Assembly: GCF_965208475.1 (NCBI RefSeq)
Contig: NZ_OZ242338.1
Span: 1,426,782-1,490,781, forward strand
DNA length: 64,000 nt
Source of the DNA: Candidatus Poriferisocius sp.
Lineage (GTDB): Bacteria > Actinomycetota > Acidimicrobiia > Acidimicrobiales > Bin134
Reading direction: 5' to 3'
This document shows positions 8,008 through 50,855 of the stretch, piece after piece. Positions within the stretch are counted from its first letter, which is position 1, and each line of letters opens with the position of its first letter. Below the pieces are notes generated by a model, which was given only the letters and a program-made list of their open reading frames with translations, searched no databases and was not told the origin of the DNA. The position numbers and the translations under genes are program-made.

Positions 8008-11000
8008 TCAGGGATTCCACAACCCCATCGAGCAGATGACGCTCGGCTCGGTTCCGACGCCGCTTCGGGGCGCGGGGAGGCAGAGCCGGCCGTCTCGGTG
8101 GAGATCGATCACCAGCGCGGCCAAATCCTCGGGCGTCCGATTGCGGATGGCGTTGGACAGCTTCTGCTTCACCGCTTCATAGAGGGGCCGCTCGTTGATC
8201 GCATCGAGAACGGCGTCAAGCTCATCGGGGTCGACGAACAGGCTCGGGGCAATCGTTGCACGATGGTCGTTCAGCTTCCGCCAGCACTTCTCCCTCACGC
8301 CCAACAGCGCGCCCGTGGCTCTGTTCGGGGGTGCCCGCAGCGGGCCGTCGAGTGCAATCGCCACCATGTCGTGGTGATCTTCCATGCAGGCGGCCGGAAG
8401 CGTTTCGGGCTCGCAGCGGGACAGGTGCAGTGCCTCCTGTGGAGTGATGCGCCGGGATTCGCCATCGGTTGTGGTGAAGGCGAAGGCGTCTGCCCCGGTC
8501 GCCGATTGGGAGTGCACCACCACCCCTTCGGCAGTCCCACCGGTCTGGGCTTGCATGGCGGCGTACACCACGTTGGGCAGCGACTCAACCCGCTTGGCGA
8601 TCCTGGGATGGCTGTCGGCCGCCTGCCGCCAGATCTCATAGGCCATAGACACCGGATCGACGTCCTCGCCGCCGTCGGCGAATCGGAAGTCGGAGTGCTC
8701 GTCGTAGAGCCCGGAAATGACCGCCCGCTCCGTATCGTCACCGAAGAACTTCTCATCAGAGCCCAGCAGTTCGGCGTTTTCCTCCAGCCGCCCGCGAATG
8801 CGGTCCCGGAGGTTGATCTCCTCGTCCACCGACCCAGCGGGCATCAGCGAATAGACCAGCACCACTTCGGCTCGTTGTCCGATGCGGTCCACCCGACCGG
8901 CCCGCTGCACCAATCGCACAATGGCCCAGGGAAGGTCGTAGTTCACCACGATGCGGGCGTCTTGAAGGTTCTGGCCCTCCGAGAGCACGTCGGTTGATAT
9001 CAGCACCCGCAACTCGGGCTGGTCTCGACCTGCGGTGACGCCCTGGTTGGCCCTGGGCGAGAAACGGCGGGCCAGCGCGGTGGGGTTCTCCGAGTCCCCG
9101 GTGACCGCGGCCACCCCTTCGATGCCGCGACGGATCAATTCCTCGGCCACGTAATCCGCAGTGTCTGCCGCCTCCGTGAACACCAGCGCCTTCTCACCGG
9201 GGTGGCGCCGGGTGATCAACTCCACCAGCGAGGCGATCTTGCCGTCGTTGTCGGCATCCCAGGTGCCAAAGTGGCTGAGAAGCGACCGTATCGCGTCGGT
9301 GTCGGAGCGCAACGCCTCGCCAAACTCCTCTGCGAAGAGCTGAGGCCGCATCCACCGGATCCGACCGGGCCTGGCCTGGGCCAGCTTTTGGTAGGCCCTA
9401 GCTGGAACCGACAGGTCGGGCATTTCGTCGACATTGAACAGCCCCTCTTCGAACAGGTCGCCCTCCTGGGCGTCGAACTCGGCCGACCACAGGGCGTTGT
9501 CCACCGACCCCACCGGCAGCAGCAAGCGGTGGTCGATGGCGTGGATAGCGACGAGGTTTCGCAGCGCGTGGCGGCGAAGCGTGGCCAGAAACGCCGGCCC
9601 CGAAGAGGTGAGGCGCTTGAACATCATGATCCGGTTGAACCCGCTGAGGTTCCCGTTGGCGGAGTTGCGGAGATCGTCGATCACTTCCTGTTCGTCCTCG
9701 GTCGGCGCCACTCGGGGATCGAGATATCGGGCCAGGTTGTAGCGGGGCAACAGCAACTCGGCTATCGCGTCGATGGTGCGCTGGTCCATCATGGCCGCGG
9801 CCGGATCGCTGGGCACCACCTCCCGCTCGAGCGGCACCGCCTCTCTTTCGGGGAAATGGAAGGGCCGCCCGTCGCCAAAACTGAGGTGGGGACGGCCGTT
9901 CTCGTCCTCGTAGGCGTAGTTGTCCTGAATGAATCGACGTGTGCGCCGCACCAGGAACTGCGACATCAGGTCCTGCCAGTCTTCGAGGTGCTCTGATGCC
10001 TGAAATGCGGCCAGCGACGAGGTGCGGCCTTCGCACATCGCGGCGAACTCTGCCTCGCCGTGTTCGGCGACAGCCCGCTCGGGGCGTATGCCCAGGTCGT
10101 CGTCGGGTCTTGCAAACAGCGCGATCTGAGCGGCCACATCGGCGAACCCCTTGTTGTAGGGGGTGGCGGTGAGCAGCAGCACTTTGGAATCGTTCTCGGT
10201 GATGTAGTCGTGAAGGGCCTGGTAGTCCTGACGCTTGGGATTGCGCAGATTGTGTGACTCATCGATGAGCACCAGCCGGTGCCGCCGCATGTCGGGCAGT
10301 TCTCGGGTGACCATCGACAGCGAGAGCACCCGACCGTGAATCTGAAACTCGTGCTGATACGACTCCCACATGCCCACCAGGTTCTTCGGGCACACGACAA
10401 GCGTCTCGAACCCGTTCTCCTCCTGAAGGAGTCGGGCGATAGCCGTGCCCACCATCGTCTTGCCGAGCCCGACCACGTCGCCCACCATCGCCCCGCCCCG
10501 CTGGTTCACGATCCGGGCCGCGATCTTCACCGCCGCAGCCTGGAACTCCAGGAGCCTCTCGGCCATCGAGGCTGGCAGCCCGTACTGGATGAGCCCCTCA
10601 CGGGCCTCATGCGACAGGTGATAGGCCATCTTGAGGTACACCAGGTAAGGATCGAGCGGCGTCTCCGATGCCCATGACTCATCCAGCAGCTCAATCAACT
10701 CAATGTTCGCCGGCACCGAGAACTGGTCGACCCAGCGGTCCTCGAACCAGGCGGCAAGCTTGGCGGTGGCATCGGTGTCGAGCACGTCGACGTTCAGCTC
10801 GCCCTGCTCCCAAAGCCCGGCCCTGGTGAGGTTGGACGACCCGACATAGCCCACCCTGGGCGCCGCGGTGTCGTCGCGGTGGCACAGATAGAGCTTGGCG
10901 TGGAGGCGGTGAGCCAGGAATAGCCGCACCTCCACATCGCCTTCAGCCATCTGCCGACGCAACTTCCGCAGCGCCTTCTCGTCTTCGACCGTGGGGAGGC

Positions 11001-11400
11001 CGACCTGGAGTTGGGCTCGAAGCTCCTTTACCGCCTCATGGCGATGCTGTTCAGCCACCTCATTGGTCACCGGCTGCTCACCCCGCAGCCTCATCAAGCG
11101 ACGCATCTCTTCGTGGGGGGTCTCCGTCATGCCCACCAGCAGGCGAACCTTGGGCCTATTACCACCACGCTCCGGCAGGGCATCTACCCCATCGGCAATG
11201 AGCCGCCAGCCCCGAAGGTTGAAATACCCCACCGCCGCGTCCACCGAGTGCGACGACGCCAGCGACTTGAGCATCACCTCCTCAAGCGAAGTGTCGATGT
11301 TGTCGAGGATGAGAGGCACCAGGACTACTCCCTGTTCCCAAACGTCATCCGGTCTCGCAGATTGCCCGCCGCCTCGTACTGCTCCCTCGTCAACCCCCAA
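8008..11400 (-). CDS. PLD-family (single HKD) nuclease domain fused to SNF2-family helicase
   Basis: - HKD motif: 'HAKLYLCH...VGYVGSSNLTRAGL'.
- SNF2 motifs: 'VVGLGKTMVG', 'LIDESHNLRN', 'LLLTATPYNK', 'DVLSEGQNLQD', 'QRAGRVDRIGQ'.
- About 330 aa of C-terminal region with no motif I recognise.
- Alternative start at GTG 11319 (MPLILDNID...), 9 nt after a GGGAG and just past the methyltransferase stop. Confidence 0.85.
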   Translation of the reverse strand: MGVDEGAVRGGGQSARPDDVWEQGVVLVPLILDNIDTSLEEVMLKSLASSHSVDAAVGYFNLRGWRLIADGVDALPERGGNRPKVRLLVGMTETPHEEMRRLMRLRGEQPVTNEVAEQHRHEAVKELRAQLQVGLPTVEDEKALRKLRRQMAEGDVEVRLFLAHRLHAKLYLCHRDDTAAPRVGYVGSSNLTRAGLWEQGELNVDVLDTDATAKLAAWFEDRWVDQFSVPANIELIELLDESWASETPLDPYLVYLKMAYHLSHEAREGLIQYGLPASMAERLLEFQAAAVKIAARIVNQRGGAMVGDVVGLGKTMVGTAIARLLQEENGFETLVVCPKNLVGMWESYQHEFQIHGRVLSLSMVTRELPDMRRHRLVLIDESHNLRNPKRQDYQALHDYITENDSKVLLLTATPYNKGFADVAAQIALFARPDDDLGIRPERAVAEHGEAEFAAMCEGRTSSLAAFQASEHLEDWQDLMSQFLVRRTRRFIQDNYAYEDENGRPHLSFGDGRPFHFPEREAVPLEREVVPSDPAAAMMDQRTIDAIAELLLPRYNLARYLDPRVAPTEDEQEVIDDLRNSANGNLSGFNRIMMFKRLTSSGPAFLATLRRHALRNLVAIHAIDHRLLLPVGSVDNALWSAEFDAQEGDLFEEGLFNVDEMPDLSVPARAYQKLAQARPGRIRWMRPQLFAEEFGEALRSDTDAIRSLLSHFGTWDADNDGKIASLVELITRRHPGEKALVFTEAADTADYVAEELIRRGIEGVAAVTGDSENPTALARRFSPRANQGVTAGRDQPELRVLISTDVLSEGQNLQDARIVVNYDLPWAIVRLVQRAGRVDRIGQRAEVVLVYSLMPAGSVDEEINLRDRIRGRLEENAELLGSDEKFFGDDTERAVISGLYDEHSDFRFADGGEDVDPVSMAYEIWRQAADSHPRIAKRVESLPNVVYAAMQAQTGGTAEGVVVHSQSATGADAFAFTTTDGESRRITPQEALHLSRCEPETLPAACMEDHHDMVAIALDGPLRAPPNRATGALLGVREKCWRKLNDHRATIAPSLFVDPDELDAVLDAINERPLYEAVKQKLSNAIRNRTPEDLAALVIDLHRDGRLCLPAPRSGVGTEPSVICSMGLWNP

Positions 11401-12989
11401 GCCTGCGCCAACAACCAGTCCGCCTCATCGGTGATGTGGCGCAGCTTCCACATCATGTATCTGCCCACCAGCATTCTTGCGTTTCCACTGCCTCTTAGGT
11501 TGAACTCCACATACTTCACCATTTCGTCTTGAAGCTCCCTGGACAACCCCAACATACGCTGAACTAAACTCACGAGTTCCATGTCACACGGAGGGTGGTG
11601 AGACGCTGCTAAGCGTTCAATGTCACACGGAAGTGCGGATAGCACGCTCCGTGTGACATGGAACTCGTCTCCGAACATCAGCCACCACAAGTACCCCCAT
11701 CGACCGGCCAGGCAAAGCAAGGCCAAGTCTCGAGAACGCTCATTCTGGAAATTGAACCACGAGGGCTGACTTGAGTTTGTGGTTACAGGTCGCCTGGATA
11801 TGGGATCGACTACTGGGGGTTCCGTGACAAATGCTCCCAATGTTTGAACAGCAGCGACCTTCTTGACACCCAAATCAAATAGCTGGCCACTCTTGTTGTT
11901 AACGCTTACAAGTGGAGCACACATCTCTGCAAGTGATGTAAAGGCATCGACTACATCTCCATCATCTATAAACGGCCACTTGGTTGCGTCTCCACAATTG
12001 AAAAGTACTCGTGAAGGATTGCCGTATTCAATCGAAGAGAACAAATATGGGCGGCTAGGAGTCAACCAGCGGTGACACCTTGTCGTGTATATCCTACGTT
12101 TACCTCCTTTGCCAGATATAACTATACTATTTCTCACCTTGGCAGAACCAGAAAATAAACTATCTGAAGCTCTGCTGTAAGAGGACAGCCACAAAGTAGA
12201 GAACTGTACACTTAGGTTATTCCGCAACAACTCAAAATCGTTGCTGTAACACAGCGAGTGCATTACGATCATCGCAAATCGTCCTTTGTCGTTCAACAAG
12301 GTAGATGCGCGCTCGGCACAGACGGCGTAGATGTCTGGACAATTACCGGTCTCATACCCAATCCACTTGTAGTCGAACTGACTGCGTTTCTTGCCTTTGA
12401 GTCCGATGTAGGGCGGGTTGCCGATGATCGCGTCGAAGCCGCCGTTTCTCCAGACGGTGGGGAACTCGGCGAACCAATGGAAGGGCTTGTGGGTTTCCTT
12501 CCAGGTTTCGAGCGGGGCTGCATCGCCTCGCATCTTGTGGAGACCTCGGTCGGCTTGGTCGGCTACCTGACCGATGCGGGTTCTGAGGAGGCCTTTGGCC
12601 CGTTGCAGAGCCGCTAGATCGTCGGTTGAATCTTGAATCGCTACGAACTCCTCGTAGGCCACCGCCGCCGACTCCACGGCGTCCTCCACCTCAGCGATCC
12701 CGAAGGGCAGCACTCCCCTGTCTGAGAACCGCCGCTCGATATCTTCAGCGTCGGCGATTCCTACAAGGAGGTTGCCGGACTTGATGTTGAAGTCCAGGTC
12801 GGGGAGCGGCTCGATGTGGGAGGCGTTGTCGAGTTGGGCGGCCAACTTCAGAAACAGCCGCAGCTTGGCGATCTCGGCTGCCTCGGCCATGAGGTCGACG
12901 CCGTAGAGGTTGTTCAGGCAGAGAGTCTTAAGCAGCCAGTAGCGCGTGCTGGTGTGGGCCCGGGCCTCTCGGAGAAATGGGGCTTCCAC
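11325..12989 (-). CDS. C-terminal fragment of Eco57I/PglX-like N6-adenine DNA methyltransferase (motif IV + putative target-recognition domain)
   Basis: 'NLYGVDLMAEAAEIAKLRLFLKL' and 'FDAIIGNPPYIGLKGKK' (NPPY motif IV). Its frame joins the upstream fragment if the G tract at 12991-13001 changes by +1 or -2. Confidence 0.8.
   Translation of the reverse strand: MEAPFLREARAHTSTRYWLLKTLCLNNLYGVDLMAEAAEIAKLRLFLKLAAQLDNASHIEPLPDLDFNIKSGNLLVGIADAEDIERRFSDRGVLPFGIAEVEDAVESAAVAYEEFVAIQDSTDDLAALQRAKGLLRTRIGQVADQADRGLHKMRGDAAPLETWKETHKPFHWFAEFPTVWRNGGFDAIIGNPPYIGLKGKKRSQFDYKWIGYETGNCPDIYAVCAERASTLLNDKGRFAMIVMHSLCYSNDFELLRNNLSVQFSTLWLSSYSRASDSLFSGSAKVRNSIVISGKGGKRRIYTTRCHRWLTPSRPYLFSSIEYGNPSRVLFNCGDATKWPFIDDGDVVDAFTSLAEMCAPLVSVNNKSGQLFDLGVKKVAAVQTLGAFVTEPPVVDPISRRPVTTNSSQPSWFNFQNERSRDLALLCLAGRWGYLWWLMFGDEFHVTRSVLSALPCDIERLAASHHPPCDMELVSLVQRMLGLSRELQDEMVKYVEFNLRGSGNARMLVGRYMMWKLRHITDEADWLLAQAWGLTREQYEAAGNLRDRMTFGNRE
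11572..11668. repeat. 22-bp perfect inverted repeat (53-nt spacer) inside the methyltransferase 3' half
   Basis: acgagttccatgtcacacggag (11572-11593) is the reverse complement of 11647-11668. A third partial copy, caatgtcacacggaag, lies in the spacer. Confidence 0.9.
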
Positions 12990-14566
12990 ACCCCCCCCCC
13001 CGCGGCAATCTCTTCGGCGCGATTCAACACCGCTGTGTACAGGGGGTCGAGCACGTCATGGGCGGCCAGCAGGAACGCTCCCGATCCCACTGTGGGATCG
13101 CAAACCGTCAGAGAGCGGAGCACCTCGAACGCTCGCTGGCACTCGTCGGCAGAGTTGAGCGTGTAATAGAGGTAGTCGGCCAGCAGCGCGGCAAGATCCA
13201 GGTTCTGCGTGACAGCGTCGTTGATGTCGGCTACGCCTCCAGAATCCACCAGCTCTTTCTGCTCGGCGTATCGCTTGCGGCGATGGCTCACGTCGCACCA
13301 CCGCTCGCCGGGCAAGGTGATGTCCAGCCCCCCGTCAGGAAACTCGCTGGGCGGCAGATCGCCCTCAGGCAAGGGCACATCGATTCCGTAACCCATAGCG
13401 TCGTGCAAGTAGTCGTCGCCGCTGCTGGACAACAGCTCGCACGGACTCTCGAGGCCGGCATCCACCAGCCTGTCGGCAATAGCCGGAATGATGGCCGAGG
13501 TGGCCATGTAACCGGTTACGTCTGGTTTGGTGTAATACGCCCCTTGCTGCTTCTTGTTCACATACTGCTCGAAGATGAATCCCAAGATGTCGGGGTTGAT
13601 CTCCTTGGCATCGCCAGTGGGCCGCTCGTCGAGATGCCAGCGCCACTGGTCGAAGAAGTCGAACAGCTTCTCGAAAGCCGTGTCGGGAATCTCGATGCAG
13701 TAAGCGCCTTCCAGCGCGTGGGGCTCGAAGATGCCACCGTTCACATAGGGCACATCGCCAATGATCTGCTCGATCGCCGCATCGTCGTAGCGGCGGGCCG
13801 CAGGCGGGCTTCCCAACCCCTCGTGGAACAGCGGCAGCAGGAACTGGCGGAAGAATGCGTAGAACCGGTCGTCCCCGAGGCGCTCTCGCACCATTCCCAG
13901 CCGCTTGCGGAGGTAGTGGGTGTCGCCGGCCACGAAGCCCTTGCGCTGGATGAAGTACACGAACATGAGACGGTTCATCAGCACCGACGCATACCAGCGC
14001 TGGTCGTCTGGCCTGGGAATGCCCTCGATATGCTCGGCCAGTCGCTCATGATGGTCTTTGAACTCCCGGAAGAACGACTTGGTGACCTTCTCCACGTTGA
14101 ACGACCGCCGCACCCGTTCGAGCACCCTTACTGCGGTCAGCTCCGGCTGCTCAGCCATGGTGAAACAAACATCGCGCAGGCGTTGCAGCAGAGCATCGTT
14201 GCCGTGGTGCGGGCGATAGTGGTGATCCACGAGCCGATGCCCCACCCCGGAAGGACGCTGCTCCGGCCACAGCCAAAGCTGCTCCCCCGGTGAGGCGAAC
14301 ACCACGAGCTGGTCACGCGACAAACGCTTCGCCGCCTTCACGATCTTATGCTGCACCGACCGAAGCGGAATCTCGCTGCACCCCACCGACCAAACCGTCA
14401 CGCCCCGCTTGTCGGCCACTGCCTCTGCGTCCCAAACCGATTCCTCGGCCTCAACGGCGACAGCCAAGCCATGAATGGGGTTGTCCCAACCAAGCCGCCG
14501 GAACAAACCGCCGAAATCATCGGCGTCCATATATTCCTGCATCTCCTGGTCGGATGGCCCAGGCAT
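12914..14566 (-). CDS. N-terminal fragment of the same N6-adenine DNA methyltransferase (N-terminal domain, motif X, motif I)
   Basis: 'QQGAYYTKPDVTGYM' (motif X) and 'LTVCDPTVGSGAFLLAAHD' (SAM motif I). 'YASVLMNRLMFVYFIQRKGF' is the helix typical of Type IIG/PglX-like N-terminal regions. It terminates about 25 codons after the G tract. Confidence 0.8.
   Translation of the reverse strand: MPGPSDQEMQEYMDADDFGGLFRRLGWDNPIHGLAVAVEAEESVWDAEAVADKRGVTVWSVGCSEIPLRSVQHKIVKAAKRLSRDQLVVFASPGEQLWLWPEQRPSGVGHRLVDHHYRPHHGNDALLQRLRDVCFTMAEQPELTAVRVLERVRRSFNVEKVTKSFFREFKDHHERLAEHIEGIPRPDDQRWYASVLMNRLMFVYFIQRKGFVAGDTHYLRKRLGMVRERLGDDRFYAFFRQFLLPLFHEGLGSPPAARRYDDAAIEQIIGDVPYVNGGIFEPHALEGAYCIEIPDTAFEKLFDFFDQWRWHLDERPTGDAKEINPDILGFIFEQYVNKKQQGAYYTKPDVTGYMATSAIIPAIADRLVDAGLESPCELLSSSGDDYLHDAMGYGIDVPLPEGDLPPSEFPDGGLDITLPGERWCDVSHRRKRYAEQKELVDSGGVADINDAVTQNLDLAALLADYLYYTLNSADECQRAFEVLRSLTVCDPTVGSGAFLLAAHDVLDPLYTAVLNRAEEIAAGGGVWKPHFSERPGPTPARATGCLRLSA
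12991..13001 (-). repeat. Homopolymeric G11 (C11 on + strand) inside the methyltransferase catalytic domain
   Basis: Direct count gives c x11 at 12991-13001. It lies between motif I and motif IV. A length of 12 or 9 would give one roughly 1,080-aa ORF. Confidence 0.95.
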
Positions 14567-43325: not shown

Positions 43326-46300
43326 CTACACGGCGATGGCGTTCTCGCCCAGCATCTCCCGCAGCTCGCCGATCAAACCGCTTCCCGCGTCCACCCCATA
43401 GGCCGAGGAGAGCTTGATGCCCTTGTCGGCGCCGAGCATGAGAATCACCTCGGACTTGCCGGGATGGCCGGCAAGAGCCGACTTGAGGCCGTCGATGCGA
43501 TCGGGGGTCAGCCTGCGAGCAGGGAGATTCACCCGCAGGGGCCCCAGGCCGTTGGCCCAGTCGAGGCGCACCGGCTCCACTCGGCTGCACAGAAGCTTGG
43601 GCTCTTCGTCGCGGCTTTCCAGCCTCCCCTCCATGACAACCACGAGATCGTTCTCGATCTTGTGGCCGTGCTCGGCAAGGGCCTTGGGGAACAGAGTCAC
43701 CTCCAGGCTGCCGTAGAGGTCCTCTAGCTCGCACGACCCCATCTGGTCGCCTCGCTTGGTCCACCTCTTGCTGAAGTTGCTGACAACCCCGCCCACCTTG
43801 ACCCGGGTGCCCTCCTCGACATCCACAAGCTGGTCGATCCGGTGGCTGGTCCTGCGGGCCAGCACCCCCTCCAAGCCCATGACCGGATGATCGGACACGT
43901 ACAGCCCCAGCATCTCCCTCTCGGCGGCCAGTCGGCGGGCCTTGTCGAACTCGGTGTCGGGGATGGCGATGTCCTCGTAGACGGAATCGAGGGCGCCCTC
44001 GTCGAACAGGCTCATCACCCCTTGCTCGCGCTCGCGCTGCTGCTGGATGCCTCGCCGCATGATCGGCTCGAACACGTTGAGCAGCCCCTGGCGGGGGTGG
44101 CCCAGCGAGTCGAAACTGCCCGCTTTGACGAGGGCTTCCACGACCCCCTTGTTCAGCACCATCGGGTCGACCCGCTGGCAGAAGTCGTAGAAGTCGGCGA
44201 ACGGGCCATTCTCGGCCCGCTCGTCCAGAATCATCTGCGCCGCGCCCGCCCCCACTTGGCGGATGGCGGAGAGCCCGAAGGAGATGGACGGCTCGCCGCC
44301 GGGCGATCGGATGGCGGCGAAGTCGGAATGGGAGAGGTTCACGTCGGGCAGGGTCACCCTGATCCCCCGCTGGCGGCAGTCGGCCAGGTACACAGCCGCC
44401 TTCTCCAGCTTGTTCTTCACGCTGGTCAAAAGGGCGGCCATGTACTCCACCGGGTAGTTGGCCTTGAGGTAGGCCCCCTGATATGCGATCAGGCCGTAGC
44501 CATAGGAGTGGCTCTTGTTGAAGGCGTAGTCGGCGAACTGTTCGATGATGTCGAACAGCTCCGTGCCCAGATCGGTGCCGTAGCCGTGCTGATCGCAGCC
44601 CTCCACGAAGGAGTCCCGCTCCTTGGCCATCAGCTCGCGGTCTTTCTTGCCGCAGGCCTTGCGGAGGTTGTCGGCCTCGGCCAGGGAATAGCCGGCGAAC
44701 CGCTGGGCCACCCGCATGACGCTCTCCTGGTAGATCATAAGACCGTAGGTGTCGGCCAAGATGTCGGACGCGTCCTCGTGGAAGAACTCCACCGGCCGGC
44801 GGCCGTTCTTGCGATCGGCGTAGTCGTGGTGCATGTTGGCGGCCATCGGGCCGGGCCGATACAGGGCCACCAGGGCGGCCACATCGTCGAAGCAGGTGGG
44901 CTTCAGGGATCGCATCAACGCTCGAATCGGGGGGCTCTCCAGCTGGAACACCCCGATGGTGTCGCCCCGGGCCAGCAGCTCGTAGGTGGCCGAGTCGTCC
45001 AGCGATACGTTGTCGATGTCCATCGCAGTGCCCAGGGACTGCTCGATGAGCCCGAGCGCATCTTCGATGACGTCCAGGTTCCGCAAGCCCAGGAAGTCCA
45101 TCTTCAGCAGGCCCAGGTCTTCCACCGCGTGCATCTCATACTGGGTGACGATGGGCACCTCGTCGAGGCTCTGGTTCGGTGAGGCCTTGCGCTGGATGGG
45201 GAGGTGCTCGGTAAGCGGCTCCTTGGTGATCACCACCGCGGCGGCGTGGATGCCGTCCTGGCGGCGCAGGCCCTCTAGGCCGCGGGCCACATCGATCACC
45301 TTGTGGGCGTCCTCGTCGCTCTCGCGCATCTCCCGCAGTTCGGCCGCCGCCTTGTATCCGTCGGCGTACTCCTCGGTCGGTTCCAAACAGGCCCACAGCG
45401 GGGTGTCGCGGCCCAGCACCAGCGGGGGCATGGCCTTGGCCAGCTTGTCGCCCAGCGAATAGGGAAGGTCCAGCACCCGGGCGCTGTCGCGCACCGCGGC
45501 CCGGGCCTTGATGGTGGAGAAGGTGATGATCTGGGCCACGTGGTCCCGGCCGTACTTCTCGGTGGCGTAGCGGATGATCTCGTCCCGGTAGCGGGAGTCG
45601 AAGTCCATGTCGATGTCGGGCATGGACACCCTCGACGGGTTGAGGAACCGCTCGAACAGCAGGTCGTAGCGAATGGGATCCAGGTCGGTGATCCGCAGGC
45701 AGTAGGCCACCGCGCACCCCGCGGCGCTGCCCCGGCCCGGGCCCACCCGGATGCCCCGCTCGCGGGCGTAGCGGATCAAGTCCCAGGTGATGAGGAAGTA
45801 GGAGGAGAAGCCCATGTCGGAGATGACCTTGAGCTCGTAGGCCAGCCGGTCGGCGGCCCCGTCGGAGAGCGGGCGGCCCCAGCGGGACTCAGCCCCTTTC
45901 AAGGTCAGCTCCCGGAGGTAGTCGTCGGCGGTTTCGAAACCCTCGGGGATGGGAAAGTCGGGCAGCTGGGGATTGCCGAACTCGATCTCCACGTCGGCGC
46001 GCTCGGCGATCCACAGCGTGTTGTCGCAGGCCGGGCCCAGCTCGGCGAACAGGCCTCGCATCTCGGCGGACGACTTGAGATAGTGCTCGTTGCCGTGGAA
46101 CCTCAGGCGGTCGGGATCGCTGACCAGCGAGCCGGTCTGCACGCACAGCAGGGCGTCGTGGGCCTCGGCGTCAGATCGATGGGTGTAGTGGCTGTCGTTG
46201 GTGGCCAGCAGGGGGGCGCCGATCTGCTCGGCCAGCCGAAGCAGCTCGGGGTTGGTCCTCTGCTGCTCGGGGATGCCGTGATCCTGGATCTCCACGAACA

Positions 46301-46853
46301 GGTTGTCCTTGCCGAAGATGTCCTGGAGGCGGGCCGCCTTGGCCACCGCCTCCTCGTACTCGTCGCGCAATAGGGACTGGAGCACGTGCCCGCCCAGACA
46401 GCCGGTGGTGGCAATCAGGCCATCGCTGTGCTCGGCCAACAGATCCCAGTCCAGCCGGGGCTTGTAGTAGTAGCCCTCGAGGAATGCCCGGCTGGACAGC
46501 TGGATGAGGTTCTTGTAACCGGCGTTGTCCTCGGCCAAAAGGGTGAGGTGGTAGTAGAGCTTGGCCCCTCCCTCGGTGCTGCCCCCGCCGTCGTCCATCT
46601 TGCCCCGCCGGGGCGGGCGCTCCGACCGGTTCTCGTGGGCCATGTAGGCCTCCGTGCCGATAATGGGCTTGACGCCCTCGGCCCGGCAGGCCCGGTAGAA
46701 GTCGATGACCCCGTACATGTTGCCGTGGTCGGTGATCCCCAGCGCGGGCTGCCCGTCGGCAGCCGCCGCCTTGACCAGGTCACCAACCCGGGAGGCGCCG
46801 TCGAGAATGGAGTACTCGGTGTGGACGTGGAGGTGGGTAAAGGAATCGGACAC
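43326..46853 (-). CDS. dnaE: DNA polymerase III alpha subunit
   Basis: 'FTHLHVHTEYSILDGA' PHP domain; polymerase core and OB region throughout. GTG start at 46853 preferred over 46955. Confidence 0.95.
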   Translation of the reverse strand: MSDSFTHLHVHTEYSILDGASRVGDLVKAAAADGQPALGITDHGNMYGVIDFYRACRAEGVKPIIGTEAYMAHENRSERPPRRGKMDDGGGSTEGGAKLYYHLTLLAEDNAGYKNLIQLSSRAFLEGYYYKPRLDWDLLAEHSDGLIATTGCLGGHVLQSLLRDEYEEAVAKAARLQDIFGKDNLFVEIQDHGIPEQQRTNPELLRLAEQIGAPLLATNDSHYTHRSDAEAHDALLCVQTGSLVSDPDRLRFHGNEHYLKSSAEMRGLFAELGPACDNTLWIAERADVEIEFGNPQLPDFPIPEGFETADDYLRELTLKGAESRWGRPLSDGAADRLAYELKVISDMGFSSYFLITWDLIRYARERGIRVGPGRGSAAGCAVAYCLRITDLDPIRYDLLFERFLNPSRVSMPDIDMDFDSRYRDEIIRYATEKYGRDHVAQIITFSTIKARAAVRDSARVLDLPYSLGDKLAKAMPPLVLGRDTPLWACLEPTEEYADGYKAAAELREMRESDEDAHKVIDVARGLEGLRRQDGIHAAAVVITKEPLTEHLPIQRKASPNQSLDEVPIVTQYEMHAVEDLGLLKMDFLGLRNLDVIEDALGLIEQSLGTAMDIDNVSLDDSATYELLARGDTIGVFQLESPPIRALMRSLKPTCFDDVAALVALYRPGPMAANMHHDYADRKNGRRPVEFFHEDASDILADTYGLMIYQESVMRVAQRFAGYSLAEADNLRKACGKKDRELMAKERDSFVEGCDQHGYGTDLGTELFDIIEQFADYAFNKSHSYGYGLIAYQGAYLKANYPVEYMAALLTSVKNKLEKAAVYLADCRQRGIRVTLPDVNLSHSDFAAIRSPGGEPSISFGLSAIRQVGAGAAQMILDERAENGPFADFYDFCQRVDPMVLNKGVVEALVKAGSFDSLGHPRQGLLNVFEPIMRRGIQQQREREQGVMSLFDEGALDSVYEDIAIPDTEFDKARRLAAEREMLGLYVSDHPVMGLEGVLARRTSHRIDQLVDVEEGTRVKVGGVVSNFSKRWTKRGDQMGSCELEDLYGSLEVTLFPKALAEHGHKIENDLVVVMEGRLESRDEEPKLLCSRVEPVRLDWANGLGPLRVNLPARRLTPDRIDGLKSALAGHPGKSEVILMLGADKGIKLSSAYGVDAGSGLIGELREMLGENAIAV

Positions 46854-47003
46854 TGCGTTCCTGTGGAAGATGTGTGGCCTGTATGTGGATAACTTACAGG
46901 CTTGTGGTTTGGCCTGCCCCGACCATACCAACACCCGGCGACTCGTGCTTATCACCGGCTGAGGGCGCGTGTTCTCCCTGGTACACGGCTACTTGGCCAT
47001 GAG

Positions 47004-47036
47004 CTAGCGGCGTGTCGAGTGTTTGGTTGCGGTGTT
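47004..47036. repeat. Left arm of a 33-nt inverted repeat (25 nt perfect: 47012-47036)
   Basis: ctagcggcgtgtcgagtgtttggttgcggtgtt. The reverse complement of 50299-50331 is ctagtggtgtgtcgagtgtttggttgcggtgtt (2 mismatches). Confidence 0.95.
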
Positions 47037-47075
47037 AGGCAGCGTGTCGCCGGCAGGCTGCTGTGGTCGTTGGGC

Positions 47076-49817
47076 TTATCCGGCTGCCTGGGCGGTGAGC
47101 GCTGCCTGCACTTTGGGCAGCGTGCCGATGCCGTCGGCCCACCCGTGACGGCGCGCCCGGGCGAGCCACGCCGCTATGTCGTCGTCGCTCATGCCGCCGC
47201 TGCGGCCCTCGAGCCGGTCGAGCACCGCTGTCCAGTCGCGCACCCCTGCATGGTGGCGGCGCGCCCTGAACGACGCGATGTGCGCTTCGACCTCAGCGAT
47301 CAGCGCCGGGTCCATCACGTACGCGACGGTCACCTCGGGCACTACGACCGGCGGCGGATCCTGCTGCTGCTGTTGTTGTTGTTGTTGTTGGGTTTGGGCG
47401 GCTGCCTGGACGGTGAGGGCTGCCTGCACTTTGGGGAGTGTGCCGATGCCGTCGGCCCAGCCGTGACGGCGTGCCCGGGCGAGCCACGCCGCTATGTCGT
47501 CGTCGCTCATGCCGCCGCTGCGGCCCTCGAGCCGGTCGAGCACCGCTGTCCAGTCGCGCACCCCTGCTTGGTGGCGGCGCGCCCTGAACGACGCGATGTG
47601 CGCTTCGACCTCCGCGACCAGCGCCGGCGAGATGCCCGCGCCGTCGCCGCTGTCCGCGTCGGGGACGGCCTGCTGCTGATCGGCCCCGTCCTGGTCGTGG
47701 GGGGGTGCCTGCTGGCCGTCGGACACCGGGTCGCTGTTGTCGTCGACGCTGGGAGAGGTCTCCAGGTTCGGCCCGTAGCTGACCGTGACCTGGCGGTGCG
47801 CTGACGGCTCGCCGTTCGCCCGCTCCAGGCTCATCGAGATGTCATAGGCGCCGGTGGAACCGTACAACGCCGGATCCAGCGTCAAATCGACCCGCAACAG
47901 CCTGTCCCAGTGGCCCGGCTTGACATGCATGGCGAACCAGTGCCTGGGCCCCGCGACCTTCGTGTACGACGACGGGCTGGCGCCCGCCTGATCGGCGCGA
48001 TGCACCGTCGCGGCCACCGGCGCGTTGTCCCACGACCCGTCGGGGCGGCCGGTGCGCAGCCGGATGCGCAGCACATCCCAGCACAACCCCGCAGAGCGGC
48101 CCTCGCAGTCGGGCGGCCCGTCGACCCTGAGCCAGAACCGTCCCAGCCCCGAACGGCTCTCGCCCGCACGGCTCAACACGCTGACCTGACCGATCACCGC
48201 CCCATCGGCGCCCACAGCATCGAAGCCCCTCAGATCGTCGTCGACTACCGCCACCGCCATGTTGAAGTCCGACTCCGCCTGAGCCTTGGACTCGCTTCGC
48301 CGCAGGATCTTCGACAGCGAACCCGACGTGTCCCAGTTCTCGCTGAACACATGACGAATGATGCGGGTCTCGGACCTCACATCGTCGTCGTGAGCGGCGG
48401 TCACCGTCACCGTGCGCACCTCATCGTGATCGCGGTGCGTCCACGACACCACCGCAGGGTCGAACGACAGCCCCTCGCCGGTGGGGGTGATCGTCAACGG
48501 CGACCCCGGCGCGGGAATGTTGGAGTTGCGCACCGTGTACTGAACGGTGCGGCCCTCCCCGACGCGCAGACACTCCCGCTCGCGACAGTGGAAACTGAAA
48601 CGCGGATCAGGGTCGAACACCGGATCCAACCCCCGGGAGCGCTTAACCACCACCGTGACCGGCGCGAACGCCACCGACGCGTCCGACGACGACAACAACA
48701 ACTGGAACTTCGCGTCAGGCCCATTCGCCGGCAAACCATCCGCGCCAGAAGCCACACCAGTCACCTCCACCACCCGATAACCCTTGTGCAGCGCAGGCTC
48801 GTCAATAGACGTGTAACCCGCCCAATCCGCAGCAGTGAAATCGAAACTCACCGACCCAGACCGCGCACGCCTCTCGGTAAACACCCACTCTCTGATAACC
48901 CCAGTACCGGTAGTCTTTTCATGCAGACGACCAGGGCCCGCAACATAACCATCCTGCACCTTCTCGCCCACAACACCGTTACGCGCGTTATGGCCATTCA
49001 CATACTTGCGGCCCATGAACAAAACCGCAGGATGATTCACCAAAAAACGCGACGGATCAGACGACGCAGCCGTCACCGACACCCGCGAAGTCACCTCCTT
49101 AGCCAAATCCAAACGCACAGACACCGTCTCACCCTCACCCACAAACACCACCGAAGGCGCCGACACCAACAGATCCGACGCCTCATTCACCGACCCGTTC
49201 ACCCCGATCTTCATGGTCTCCGTGCGGGGGGCGGACCACGAGCCGCTGCTGACACTGGAGCTACGCACAAAGCTGCTGTCAGCGATGCTGAAGCCGGGCG
49301 TCCCGCCCGAGTCCTCGTTGTTTGAAGCCGCGCTGTCGACACGGTTGTTGCCCGAAAGACTGCCATGGTTGTCGAGCACAATGAAATACTCGGTGTCCGC
49401 CGCGAGGCTGATGCCGCTCCCCGGCGCCGCGAAACGCAGCCTCTGAACACTGCTGAACGGCGAGAAAGCCGGCCACGCCAACGTCCCGACAACACCGCCG
49501 GGGCGGCCGTCCGCCTCAGCATGCACCGACACCGACAACTTCGAAACCGCAGCAGCATCAGTCAACTGAGCAAACTGCACATGGACACTGCTCAACGTGT
49601 AACCCAACGCGTTGCCGCCCGTCGAGAACGCCTGCGCAGCATCCAACAAAGGCAACTCGTAGTCGTTCCCCTCGCTCTGGCCCAGATTGCTCACCAACAC
49701 CGACTCAGTCGGCGACTGCGCCCCAGCAGGCGACGACGGCGACACAGCCAGCACCGCAGCCAACACCGCCAACACCGCCAACACGCGCACCACGCGGCAT
49801 CGGCCCCTCACAGGCAC
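47076..49817 (-). CDS. Large secreted/surface repeat protein of unknown function
   Basis: Signal peptide 'RGRCRVVRVLAVLAVLAAVLAVSPSSPAGAQ'. Beta-rich body. C-terminus has two near-identical modules joined by Q10. Start taken as GTG 49817, directly after the G23 tract; the open frame continues to 50021. Confidence 0.7.
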   Translation of the reverse strand: MPVRGRCRVVRVLAVLAVLAAVLAVSPSSPAGAQSPTESVLVSNLGQSEGNDYELPLLDAAQAFSTGGNALGYTLSSVHVQFAQLTDAAAVSKLSVSVHAEADGRPGGVVGTLAWPAFSPFSSVQRLRFAAPGSGISLAADTEYFIVLDNHGSLSGNNRVDSAASNNEDSGGTPGFSIADSSFVRSSSVSSGSWSAPRTETMKIGVNGSVNEASDLLVSAPSVVFVGEGETVSVRLDLAKEVTSRVSVTAASSDPSRFLVNHPAVLFMGRKYVNGHNARNGVVGEKVQDGYVAGPGRLHEKTTGTGVIREWVFTERRARSGSVSFDFTAADWAGYTSIDEPALHKGYRVVEVTGVASGADGLPANGPDAKFQLLLSSSDASVAFAPVTVVVKRSRGLDPVFDPDPRFSFHCRERECLRVGEGRTVQYTVRNSNIPAPGSPLTITPTGEGLSFDPAVVSWTHRDHDEVRTVTVTAAHDDDVRSETRIIRHVFSENWDTSGSLSKILRRSESKAQAESDFNMAVAVVDDDLRGFDAVGADGAVIGQVSVLSRAGESRSGLGRFWLRVDGPPDCEGRSAGLCWDVLRIRLRTGRPDGSWDNAPVAATVHRADQAGASPSSYTKVAGPRHWFAMHVKPGHWDRLLRVDLTLDPALYGSTGAYDISMSLERANGEPSAHRQVTVSYGPNLETSPSVDDNSDPVSDGQQAPPHDQDGADQQQAVPDADSGDGAGISPALVAEVEAHIASFRARRHQAGVRDWTAVLDRLEGRSGGMSDDDIAAWLARARRHGWADGIGTLPKVQAALTVQAAAQTQQQQQQQQQQDPPPVVVPEVTVAYVMDPALIAEVEAHIASFRARRHHAGVRDWTAVLDRLEGRSGGMSDDDIAAWLARARRHGWADGIGTLPKVQAALTAQAAG
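47082..47612 (-). repeat. Two 213-bp near-identical blocks (period 318 bp) encoding the duplicated C-terminal module
   Basis: 47082-47294 versus 47400-47612 show about 7 substitutions. Protein module: 'ALIAEVEAHIASFRARRH.AGVRDWTAVLDRLEGRSGGMSDDDIAAWLARARRHGWADGIGTLPKVQAAL'. Confidence 0.9.
47361..47390 (-). repeat. Trinucleotide repeat (CAA)6(CAG)4 encoding Q10 between the two modules
   Basis: The + strand reads ctgctgctgctgttgttgttgttgttgttg. Confidence 0.95.
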
Positions 49818-49819
49818 GA

Positions 49820-49842
49820 CCCCCCCCCCCCCCCCCCCCCCC
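49820..49842 (-). repeat. Homopolymeric G23 (C23 on + strand) immediately 5' of the signal-peptide coding sequence
   Basis: Direct count gives c at 49820-49842. Confidence 0.95.
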
Positions 49843-50091
49843 GAACGGAGAGACCCATCAACAACACCAACAACAGACGAACCAGCCAACACGCTCACAA
49901 CATGACCCTCCCGCTCAGCCTTCAACGGCCTGCGATATCTTTGCAGCATCCAAGCGCTGAACACATCCCGACGCCGGAACACGCGCAGCAATACATGCAG
50001 CCAGCATACGGACCCACACACACCCGGTCAACGACGCCATAGCCCCAGCGCCCTGCCGGCCGCCTTGGGCGCTGCCGTGCGCCACGCGAAT

Positions 50092-50113
50092 GACCCGGGC
50101 CGAAGCCCGGGTC
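50092..50113 (-). terminator. 9-bp GC stem with UUCG loop (minus-strand RNA), candidate U-tail-less terminator or stabiliser downstream of bpa
   Basis: The minus strand reads gacccgggc-ttcg-gcccgggtc. It lies 215 nt after the bpa stop. There is no U tract. Confidence 0.35.
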
Positions 50114-50298
50114 GACAGCCGAATCGTGCAAAGTCGCTTTCGTTCTCGTGTTCATCCACAAGCTGGTTCAGGCGCAGGGGGTCGACTCCTGGCACGAACC
50201 CAGTCGAATGGGTCCGGACGCGATATGGCTCGGCCGACAGGGATGCGTCCGGCCACAGTCCGCAACGCAGCACACATGCTCACGACACGACACCAACC

Positions 50299-50331
50299 AA
50301 CACCGCAACCAAACACTCGACACACCACTAG
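50299..50331. repeat. Right arm of the 33-nt inverted repeat; overlaps the bpa stop codon (CTAG)
   Basis: See the left arm. The terminal ctag contains the TAG stop of bpa (50328-50330). Confidence 0.95.
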
Positions 50332-50855
50332 AGATAGGTGCCCGGGGCGCGGTCGGGGCCGGGGACAGGGGCGCCGGGGGGCAGTTCGGCCCGGATGTTG
50401 GCAAGCTGCTGCTGCGCGGAGACCTGCTGGGCGAACAGGGCGGCCTGGATGCCCTGGATCAGGCCCTCCAGCCACCCCACCAACTGGGCTTTGGCCACCT
50501 GGAGCTCGGGTTGGCTGGGGGGGTGGTCTTGGGGAAACGGCAGGATCAGGCGGTCGAGCTCCTCGCTCAGATCAGGGGACAGCGCCGAGCCCAGCTCCTC
50601 GATCGAAGTGGCGTATATCTCCCGCAGCCGGTCGCGGCTGGACTCGTCCAGCGAAGCCTGGCGAACCTCTTCCAAGAGCTGCTTCATCATCGTGCCGACC
50701 CTCATCACCTTGGCCGGCTGCTCTATGGCCTCCCTGGCCGTCTCGGGCTCAGTCTTCCCGCTATCGGGAAGCGCCCCATCGTGGACAACCTCGGCGGGCT
50801 CAGCAGGCATCGGCTGGCGGGTGTCGGACATGGCTGGCAATCTACCCGCTGCCAC
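50328..50855 (-). CDS. bpa: Bacterial proteasome activator (Bpa/PafE-like)
   Basis: Helical protein of about 170 aa ending in 'GTYL', compared with the GQYL proteasome-docking motif of Bpa. The start may be ATG 50831. Confidence 0.65.
   Translation of the reverse strand: MAAGRLPAMSDTRQPMPAEPAEVVHDGALPDSGKTEPETAREAIEQPAKVMRVGTMMKQLLEEVRQASLDESSRDRLREIYATSIEELGSALSPDLSEELDRLILPFPQDHPPSQPELQVAKAQLVGWLEGLIQGIQAALFAQQVSAQQQLANIRAELPPGAPVPGPDRAPGTYL

Follow-up and report, generated by a model that had tools for sequence, protein, structure and literature searches.

A probable non-autonomous transposon carries a secreted-protein gene into the CTAG stop codon of bpa in a sponge-symbiont genome

We report that a 3.3-kb unit in the genome of Candidatus Poriferisocius sp., which carries a single gene for a secreted protein, has inserted at a CTAG doubling as the stop codon of bpa. 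The window analysed is a stretch of 64,000 nt (NZ_OZ242338.1, positions 1,426,782-1,490,781), and all coordinates below are window positions. We propose, with a probability of about 0.8, that the unit (47004-50331) belongs with the mobile insertion cassettes (MICs), a type of non-autonomous DNA transposon, and has a putative cognate transposase. Indeed, it combines terminal inverted repeats, a target-site duplication with a matching empty site and a passenger without transposase. A cargo-carrying, non-autonomous transposable element had been the first of three readings offered by the initial annotation, and it is now supported by empty sites, an excision alignment, a second insertion and a MITE.

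Results

An inverted-repeat search returned two arms of 33 nt (47004-47036 and 50299-50331; 94% complementary, spacing 3262 nt) as the top-ranked inverted repeat, both locally and across the whole 64-kb window. The arms match at 31/33 positions, as first described, and would pair perfectly over 25 nt. Even at 3 mismatches, the window contains this 25-nt core, GTGTCGAGTGTTTGGTTGCGGTGTT, exactly twice, against an expectation of 0.00 in shuffled sequences.

The flanking genes and the cargo are all encoded on the minus strand. The proteasome activator gene bpa (50328-50831; Pfam BPA, 1e-58) is intact and ends in ...GTYL-TAG; as had been noticed, its stop lies within the right-hand CTAG (50328-50331), TAG being minus-strand 50330-50328. 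On the other side, dnaE (43326-46853) encodes five DNA pol III alpha domains. The initial annotation had suggested a search for an empty site in related genomes, and the bpa-dnaE interval is indeed empty in close relatives: in nine contigs with the same gene order and a bpa 88-93% identical to that of the window, a gap of 140-160 nt separates the two genes. At the insertion point, six of these nine contigs have an exact single CTAG (TATCTCTAGCTCAT), reading TATCT-CTAG-CTCAT where the window reads TATCT-CTAG-(3320 bp)-CTAG-CTCAT. Excision in silico of the element and one CTAG gives a colinear alignment with the empty sites, which extends to the spacer of about 150 nt upstream of dnaE (46854-47003). 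The filled site was seen in this one genome only.

Since the empty sites hold a single CTAG, we identify CTAG (or its central TA) as the target-site duplication, with one copy at 50328-50331 and the second at 47004-47007. By virtue of this duplication bpa keeps its stop and C-terminus and dnaE keeps its upstream spacer. The palindromic CTAG had been thought inseparable from the inverted repeat and its outer copies had been counted as part of it; the empty sites settle this point, CTAG being the pre-existing target. The palindrome still makes a duplication of TA, of CTAG or of 3 bp, or a recombinase core, look alike here.

The repeat proper is thus 29 nt long, with 27/29 identical positions (30 nt if the duplication is TA only). 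The 5′ terminal inverted repeat lies on the minus strand at 50299-50327 (TGGTGTGTCGAGTGTTTGGTTGCGGTGTT) and the 3′ one on the plus strand at 47008-47036 (CGGCGTGTCGAGTGTTTGGTTGCGGTGTT), the latter with two T-to-C differences at tip positions 1 and 4. With these two tip mismatches in its downstream arm, the window copy may no longer be mobile. Between the 3′ repeat and the cargo stop lies an untranslated stretch (47037-47075, minus strand), in which homology to four paralog loci (L003, L004, L008 and L009) ends at 47046; about 30 nt right after the stop are also present in repeat-less paralogs.

The initial annotation had described a single enclosed gene without transposase or recombinase, and we likewise find one gene and no match to such families. 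The cargo (47076-49793, minus strand) encodes a secreted choice-of-anchor-R/beta-sandwich protein; the public annotation gives it 905 aa, starting at 49793, and its open frame (50021-47076) covers 981 aa. It has a signal peptide and matches NCBIfam NF041539 (3.9e-24). Its AlphaFold model consists of beta-sandwiches and two C-terminal helical modules, for which Foldseek returned Ig-like/adhesin arrays only and no transposase fold. Pfam and NCBIfam searches of the cargo, of an 81-aa ORF in the leader and of a long antisense ORF gave no transposase or recombinase family.

A locus search with the single cargo protein yielded no confirmed relative, and the paralog loci used here were found by an alignment-based search. 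In the source genome, the cargo and its paralogs correspond to P0001, P0002 and P0004. Run against 1.84 billion proteins, the cargo profile gave 13,237 matches; among the matches listed, most of the best ones hit the modules at the N-terminus (profile 3-200) and at the C-terminus (about 810-1014), which recur within giant proteins. This search tells nothing on mobility. Searching PDB profiles with the cargo alignment returned poly-Q artefacts only, and these were set aside.

Two features were noted in the leader upstream of the cargo (49843-50298, minus strand, about 455 nt): a GC hairpin at 50092-50113, closed by a UUCG loop (centroid -21.4 kcal/mol, z -1.9), and, at 50003-50031, a single match of sigma-70 type, TTGACC-17-TATGCT. 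The cargo probably has its own expression signals. The leader has no homolog in any of the fetched loci; with no family match either, we rejected its descent from a former transposase or from some other locus. A poly-G tract of 23 nt (49820-49842, minus strand), which could switch the cargo on and off, directly precedes the region that codes for the signal peptide. Poly-G tracts of 6-23 G occupy the same 5′ position in 20 of 22 distinct paralog loci.

A second insertion was found in another species (OZ242339.1). It is 3338 bp long, carries a paralog of the window cargo and lies where a DUF35 gene ends in a CTAG stop, a site that is empty in 22 related genomes. It is headed by a 39-nt block, made up of CTAG, the repeat and GGTTGG, which is 100% identical to the 5′ end of the window element (50293-50331, minus strand). 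This 39/39 identity is to be compared with about 78% in the alignable cargo (P ~5e-5 under equal divergence). A 14-nt match (GGTTGCGGTGTTGG) in four paralogs raised the idea that the 39-mer is a relic of signal-peptide coding sequence; we judged it a compositional coincidence. In the OZ242339.1 insertion, a repeat can be recognised at just one end, and its right end lacks even a degenerate one (end alignment p = 0.49); that other end is common to the L012 paralog and likewise stops at CTAG. Such a single-repeat insertion fits poorly with a transposase that strictly requires two repeats. At the same DUF35 site, two more genomes hold a 164-nt miniature element (MITE) whose 18-nt repeat is perfect. 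The 5′ repeat of the window, the L035 insertion and the L045/L048 MITE have the tip TGGTGTGTCG in common. As far as can be read from sequence, an insertion with the same end and a MITE with the same tip point to repeated transposition.

Flanking repeats were also sought at the other 21 paralog loci, where a first pass gave none of the window type (type A). A second, CTAG-anchored pass over the same loci revealed a second type (type B), with ends made of CTAG plus ACGGTTTGTTCCAAGGGGT... The repeats of L019 and L005 are not significant end-to-end, and these loci were counted solely since each of their ends fits the type-B consensus. Among the 4229 CTAG-CTAG pairs in all the DNA fetched, three have at least 14/20 inverted identity beside the CTAGs; each of these contains a paralog of the cargo between its CTAGs, and the background maximum is 13/20.

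We also searched for an autonomous element with the same ends and found none in the window, in about 1.9 Mb of related loci or, using the exact 25-mer, in 185,579 species genomes (GTDB). In PLSDB plasmids, a sensitive blastn with both repeat types gave chance-level matches only, none of them at an annotated transposase. The tip sequences occur in literature full text as unrelated primers only. An exact 21-mer had one match in JGI metagenomes, on an unrelated contig of low GC content whose flanks showed no similarity; we judged this match to be due to chance.

Discussion

In our proposal, a single passenger gene is framed by 29-nt terminal inverted repeats, and the element would depend on a DDE transposase encoded elsewhere, which would bind the repeats and cut or copy the unit into CTAG sites. 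Such an enzyme could be IS630/Tc1-mariner-like, with TA duplicated inside CTAG, or IS5-like, with CTAG duplicated. As this 67% G+C genome appears to have five-fold fewer CTAGs than expected, and as these often lie at gene ends, insertions there would be harmless.

The closest known kind is the MIC, in which passenger genes between IS-type repeats, without transposase, are mobilised in trans; examples are the TALE-gene MICs of Xanthomonas, bounded by TnXax1 repeats, and the Bacillus cereus MICs cited in the same work (PMC4337579). Like MICs, the window element has a passenger between terminal inverted repeats, no transposase inside and a target-site duplication. The resemblance extends to the family, in which solo-repeat variants adjoin other gene copies and the passenger comes from a multi-copy, repeat-containing gene family for host interaction. 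Unlike in MICs, the repeats of the window are tied to no described IS, the cognate transposase being putative, and the duplication is CTAG/TA instead of the 5 bp of the Tn3 type. In addition, the host is a sponge-associated member of the Acidimicrobiia, one and the same cargo family is carried by two or more types of repeat, and one insertion is single-ended. The Bacillus cereus example, MIC231, is an IS231 derivative; IS231-type duplications are 10-12 bp, which also differs from the CTAG/TA of the window.

Regarding the enzyme, IS630 duplicates TA within CTAG (PMC2577343, Table 1). The window element shares with IS630/Tc1-mariner elements the CTAG preference and terminal repeats some tens of bp long, and it is compatible with a TA duplication, although this is indistinguishable here from a duplication of CTAG. 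Non-autonomous derivatives are common in IS630/Tc1-mariner, and a 164-nt MITE with the same tip is present here too. However, a 3-kb cargo is unusual for derivatives of that family, and neither the window nor the 1.9 Mb of related loci yielded an IS630-type transposase. IS5 is flanked by CTAG direct repeats and has a 4-bp target (PMC10379815), and the window element likewise has CTAG at both ends. Against an IS5-type enzyme, a 4-bp duplication would leave tips starting with T and C, which are mismatched, and the same two sets of sequences yielded no IS5-type transposase. The type-B ends may resemble those of IS427/IS1031.

Site-specific integration, by a tyrosine or serine recombinase or by cutting and re-ligation at a C^TAG restriction site, is an unlikely alternative to transposition. 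Strand exchange would then occur inside a CTAG core flanking the insert, and the repeats would be recombinase-binding arms. This would fit the palindromic nature of CTAG, which makes a repeated core indistinguishable from a target duplication, as well as the OZ242339.1 and L012 cassettes, which end at CTAG without a matching repeat there, and the DUF35 site, where CTAG, CTAGCTAG and near-CTAG variants are present. However, beyond CTAG the target flanks have nothing in common with the arms, and both the perfect repeat of the 164-nt MITE and the 27/29 repeats of the window are hallmarks of DDE transposons. The Pfam and NCBIfam scans, which covered the window element, also revealed no recombinase.

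It is very improbable that the unit is an invertible segment of the Gin/Hin type, in which a recombinase encoded elsewhere would flip the 3.3 kb and so switch the cargo relative to read-through from bpa. Invertible segments such as phage Mu G, P1 C and Salmonella H do share with the window element a size of about 3 kb and inverted repeats of about 30 bp; the Mu G segment is about 3 kb long with 34-bp repeats, and the cargo is co-directional with bpa. Inversion, the second reading of the initial annotation, nevertheless found no support, since it makes neither a target duplication nor empty sites. It also leaves unexplained the single-ended OZ242339.1 copy and the MITE, which have no counterpart among invertible segments. 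Moreover, only one orientation was observed, no recombinase family was matched inside the element and no adjacent invertase was seen. The unit carries one complete gene with its own leader; given the hairpin and the promoter-like site in this leader, the direction of the cargo with respect to bpa need not be of consequence.

The last of the earlier readings, dispersed REP-like or regulatory repeats that happen to face each other, to which we add a 33-bp RNA duplex between 5′ and 3′ UTRs across the cargo mRNA, is the least probable of all: the arms, if transcribed, would pair over the 25-nt core and the upstream one travels with the gene in OZ242339.1, but that insertion has a single arm, the empty sites and the duplicated CTAG are left unexplained, Rfam gave no match on the element even at a permissive threshold, and the core, far from occurring in the many, mostly solitary copies of REP/BIME-like repeats, is limited to its two copies in 64 kb, even at 3 mismatches, one exact match in the 185,579 genomes and, in the related loci, the elements described here, being absent beside the 20 other paralogs.

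Coming back to the MIC-type transposon, a wider reading can be advanced tentatively, and we consider it possible rather than likely. The cassettes would form an undescribed lineage that targets CTAG/stop codons in sponge-symbiotic Acidimicrobiia, of which only non-autonomous members are visible, with one cargo family of poly-G, probably phase-variable surface proteins, and with two or more diverged types of repeat, besides CTAG-bounded copies that are single-ended or have no repeat. If this were true, there would be an unrecognised mobilising enzyme, or one-ended mobilisation, and variable surface-protein genes would be parked right behind the stop codons of housekeeping genes.

With its empty sites, the bpa-dnaE interval cleanly illustrates the spread of a large family of surface-protein genes, both inside single genomes and from one genome to another, in uncultivated sponge symbionts: transposase-less cassettes bring the genes onto CTAG stop codons and leave core genes, here bpa and dnaE, undamaged. 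The tip TGGTGTGTCG and its second-type equivalent ACGGTTTGTTCCAAGGGGT can serve as sequence tags to hunt for the missing transposase in complete genomes. Finally, the combination of poly-G tracts and cassettes suggests that these symbionts vary their surface by slipped-strand switching plus transposition, a variation that is relevant to the persistence of a symbiont in a phagocytic, filter-feeding host.

An insertion at the bpa-dnaE junction

The arms at 47004-47036 and 50299-50331 (33 nt, 94% complementary, 3262 nt apart) rank first among the inverted repeats of the entire 64-kb window, confirming that the repeat described in the initial annotation is real. Its perfect 25-nt core has exactly two matches in the window with three mismatches tolerated, shuffled sequences giving an expectation of 0.00. 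The cargo gene enclosed by the arms (50021..47076, minus strand; 981 aa, or 905 aa from position 49793 in the public annotation) lies between bpa (50831..50328, minus strand; Pfam BPA, 1e-58) and dnaE (46853..43326, minus strand). The arms could pair as the 5′ and 3′ ends of an RNA only if both are transcribed, and such pairing, an unlikely reading, cannot account for the insertion itself.

The initial annotation proposed looking for an empty bpa-dnaE site in relatives. We traced bpa homologs 88-93% identical to that of the window to nine metagenome contigs. All nine are empty and share the gene order of the window (phosphodiesterase, bpa, dnaE, a 222-229-aa gene, nitroreductase), with 140-160 nt from bpa to dnaE. 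At the junction, six carry a single CTAG (...TATCT-CTAG-CTCATCC...), two a TGA stop and one GTAG. The window reads ...TATCT-CTAG-TGGTGTGTCGAG...CTCGACACGCCG-CTAG-CTCATGG..., and in silico removal of the element and one CTAG renders the junction colinear with the empty sites. CTAG is therefore part of the target, and the insertion duplicated it. The earlier concern that CTAG could not be separated from the repeat is settled by the empty sites. As CTAG is palindromic, a 2-bp TA duplication (with element tips G...C) and a 4-bp CTAG duplication are indistinguishable. Once CTAG is assigned to the target, the repeat proper is 29 nt long with 27 matching positions. Two positions of the downstream arm deviate from the consensus tip, so the window copy may be immobile.

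As first read, the right-hand CTAG contains the TAG stop codon of bpa. The duplication regenerates this codon, the protein still ends in ...GTYL, and the ~150-nt spacer upstream of dnaE is untouched, so that neither core gene seems to be damaged by the insertion. The window holds 36 CTAGs where its base composition predicts about 193, and 11 of the 36 close a reading frame that has stayed open, on one strand, for 150 codons or more.

A second insertion site and a miniature element

Among 185,579 species genomes, the exact 25-mer has a single match, in the Acidimicrobiales MAG OZ242339.1. There, 39 nt (CTAG, the repeat and GGTTGG) are 100% identical to the upstream end of the window element. 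They begin at the CTAG stop codon of a DUF35-type gene, and a cargo paralog comes next. The alignable cargo DNA of the two elements is ~78% identical, and 39 identities out of 39 are very unlikely under equal divergence (P about 5e-5); this end is thus either under constraint or has moved recently.

We fetched the thiolase-DUF35 locus from 33 close relatives. In 22 of them it is empty, the DUF35 stop abutting that of a convergent gene (e.g. GGCTAGCTGGAGG, GACTAGCTAGCTGGAGG), while OZ242339.1 carries an insertion of 3338 bp. A 164-nt miniature element (MITE; 8587-8750 in both fetched loci, L045 and L048) occupies the same point, the DUF35 CTAG stop, in two other genomes, OX638350.1 and an assembly of Ca. 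Poriferisocius, the copies being 99.4% identical. Its terminal repeat, TGGTGTGTCGTGGGTTTA, is perfect over 18 nt and its first 10 nt are the tip of the window element. The DUF35 site is a second, independent insertion site, and the elements form a family sharing tip and CTAG target. The right-hand duplication copies are imperfect there: GTAG in OZ242339.1 and CTGG in the MITE genomes, where the flank reads CTGG-CTAG and not CTAG. Some empty relatives carry CTAGCTAG, which could be an excision footprint.

This locus, near position 8583 of the fetched sequences (L036-L063), is a hot spot for insertions: the CTAG stops of two convergent genes coincide or adjoin here. Its states comprise a single CTAG, CTAGCTAG, the MITE and the 3.3-kb cassette; L051 instead has an unrelated insert of ~1.5 kb with a predicted 415-aa ORF bearing a P-loop-like GPRSVGKST motif.

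Although the boundaries of the OZ242339.1 insertion are exact, a repeat is recognisable only on its left side. A paralog of another genome has the same right end (...GATATTGCTGACGCGCTCA..CTAG), with CTAG ending both: the last ~70 nt are shared (L012 9248-9322, L035 11855-11927), including 48 nt beyond the stop codon, and neither right end forms an inverted repeat with its left end. Mobilisation from one end, a third type of end or a mechanism needing only CTAG could account for this. The combination of a repeat at one end and a shared, CTAG-stopping end at the other also keeps site-specific recombination alive, at low probability, as an alternative to transposition. Inversion of the segment between the arms, the second reading initially offered, is not supported, as it leaves the CTAG duplication, the empty sites, the single-ended copy and the MITE unexplained. 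With two copies in the window and one 25-mer match in the species genomes, the numbers contradict the third reading, a dispersed REP-like repeat.

The cargo family and its repeats

The N-terminus of the cargo resembles a signal peptide, and residues 111-276 constitute a choice-of-anchor R domain (NCBIfam NF041539, 3.9e-24); a Pfam scan gave no match. In the AlphaFold model (mean pLDDT 63.7), domains of beta-strands span residues ~120 to 750, and the C-terminal part consists of two helical modules. With this model, Foldseek retrieved only Ig-like/adhesin-type domain arrays from the PDB, and a PDB sequence-profile search returned poly-Q artefacts only. None of these searches revealed any resemblance to a transposase or recombinase, and an 81-aa leader ORF and a long antisense ORF had no family match, in agreement with the initial finding that the arms enclose no such gene. 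A 251-nt direct repeat (47059-47309/47377-47627, 94%) codes for the two ~80-aa helical modules, with poly-Q between them. When the C-terminal columns of the paralogs are aligned, a Calx-beta-like insert and two unrelated types of C-terminal module prove to be shuffled, suggesting that family members have recombined with one another.

No fetched locus holds a homolog of the ~455-nt leader, and Rfam gave no match to it. A GC hairpin of 9 bp closed by a UUCG loop lies at 50092-50113, and one sigma-70-like match, TTGACC-17-TATGCT, at 50003-50031. A 23-nt poly-G tract (49820-49842) directly precedes the signal-peptide codons. Such tracts, of 6-23 nt, occupy this position in 20 of 22 distinct paralog loci (window, L002-L021 and L024), spread over the source and three other genomes, and are absent only from two distant homologs of a fourth genome (L022, L023). 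Against the 23 G of the window, the other tracts count 7-21 G. Tracts of this kind classically mark slipped-strand phase variation, but they may equally reflect uncertain assembly of homopolymers.

Elsewhere in the window, an 11-nt poly-G tract (12991-13001, minus strand) marks the exact junction of two ~550-aa ORFs (14566..12914 and 12989..11325, both minus strand). The downstream ORF is an Eco57I-type restriction-modification methylase (5e-26), and the two appear to be a single gene broken by a homopolymer frameshift. As the next gene (11400..8008) is a PLD-nuclease/SNF2-helicase fusion, the region probably represents a defence island whose methylase is phase-variable or mis-assembled. Near these genes lies a 26-nt hairpin palindrome (11572-11597/11643-11668; 96% complementary, 45-nt loop).

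The cargo family is multi-copy: the source chromosome carries three members, and three related chromosomes yielded 4 to 10 each. The terminal repeat of the window element (type A) is absent from the other 20 paralog loci. In three further genomes, paralogs are bounded by CTAG and a second repeat, type B (CTAG-ACGGTTTGTTCCAAGGGGT..), with CTAG-ACGGTTTGTTCCAAGGGGTCGG.. upstream and, reverse-complemented, CTAG-ACGAGTAGTTCCAAGGGGTGG... downstream. Both ends are present in L017 (5775-8310), where the pair is significant, and in L019 (5765-9613) and L005 (5849-9336), where the ends match the consensus and the pair alone is not significant. Single ends occur in L013, L015, L020 and L023, the last beside a homolog of 33% identity that belongs to a fourth genome. 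Many of the flanking CTAGs are stop codons of long neighbouring ORFs. Past a 3-nt gap, the two types share roughly 60% of positions, hinting that they are related. As a control, we examined 4229 CTAG-CTAG pairs lying 60-8000 bp apart across all fetched DNA: three had an inverted identity of at least 14/20 beside the CTAGs, all three enclosing a cargo paralog, and the background maximum was 13/20.

A probable mobile insertion cassette

Altogether, transposase-less, repeat-bounded units with a cargo-family gene have inserted at CTAG at least twice, duplicating the site, and a miniature element has the same tip and target. The duplicated CTAG, the empty sites, the second insertion and the MITE support the first reading initially offered, a non-autonomous cargo transposon. 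A DDE transposase supplied in trans would recognise the terminal repeats. We found no autonomous element in the window, ~1.9 Mb of related loci, the 185,579 species genomes (exact 25-mer), JGI metagenomes or PLSDB. In known systems, IS630 duplicates TA inside CTAG (PMC2577343, Table 1) and CTAG direct repeats are reported for IS5 (PMC10379815).

By definition, the IS-related inverted repeats of a mobile insertion cassette (MIC) enclose passenger genes but no transposase, and a cognate transposase activates the unit (PMC4337579). The window element has the same overall architecture and is very probably a MIC. A close analogue is provided by the Xanthomonas TALE genes, a multi-copy host-interaction family partly packaged in MICs, with solo repeats beside other copies (PMC4337579). 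More interesting than a plain MIC is the possibility that these cassettes are a dedicated stop-codon-targeting vehicle, perhaps with an unusual mode of mobilisation, for a phase-variable surface-protein family.
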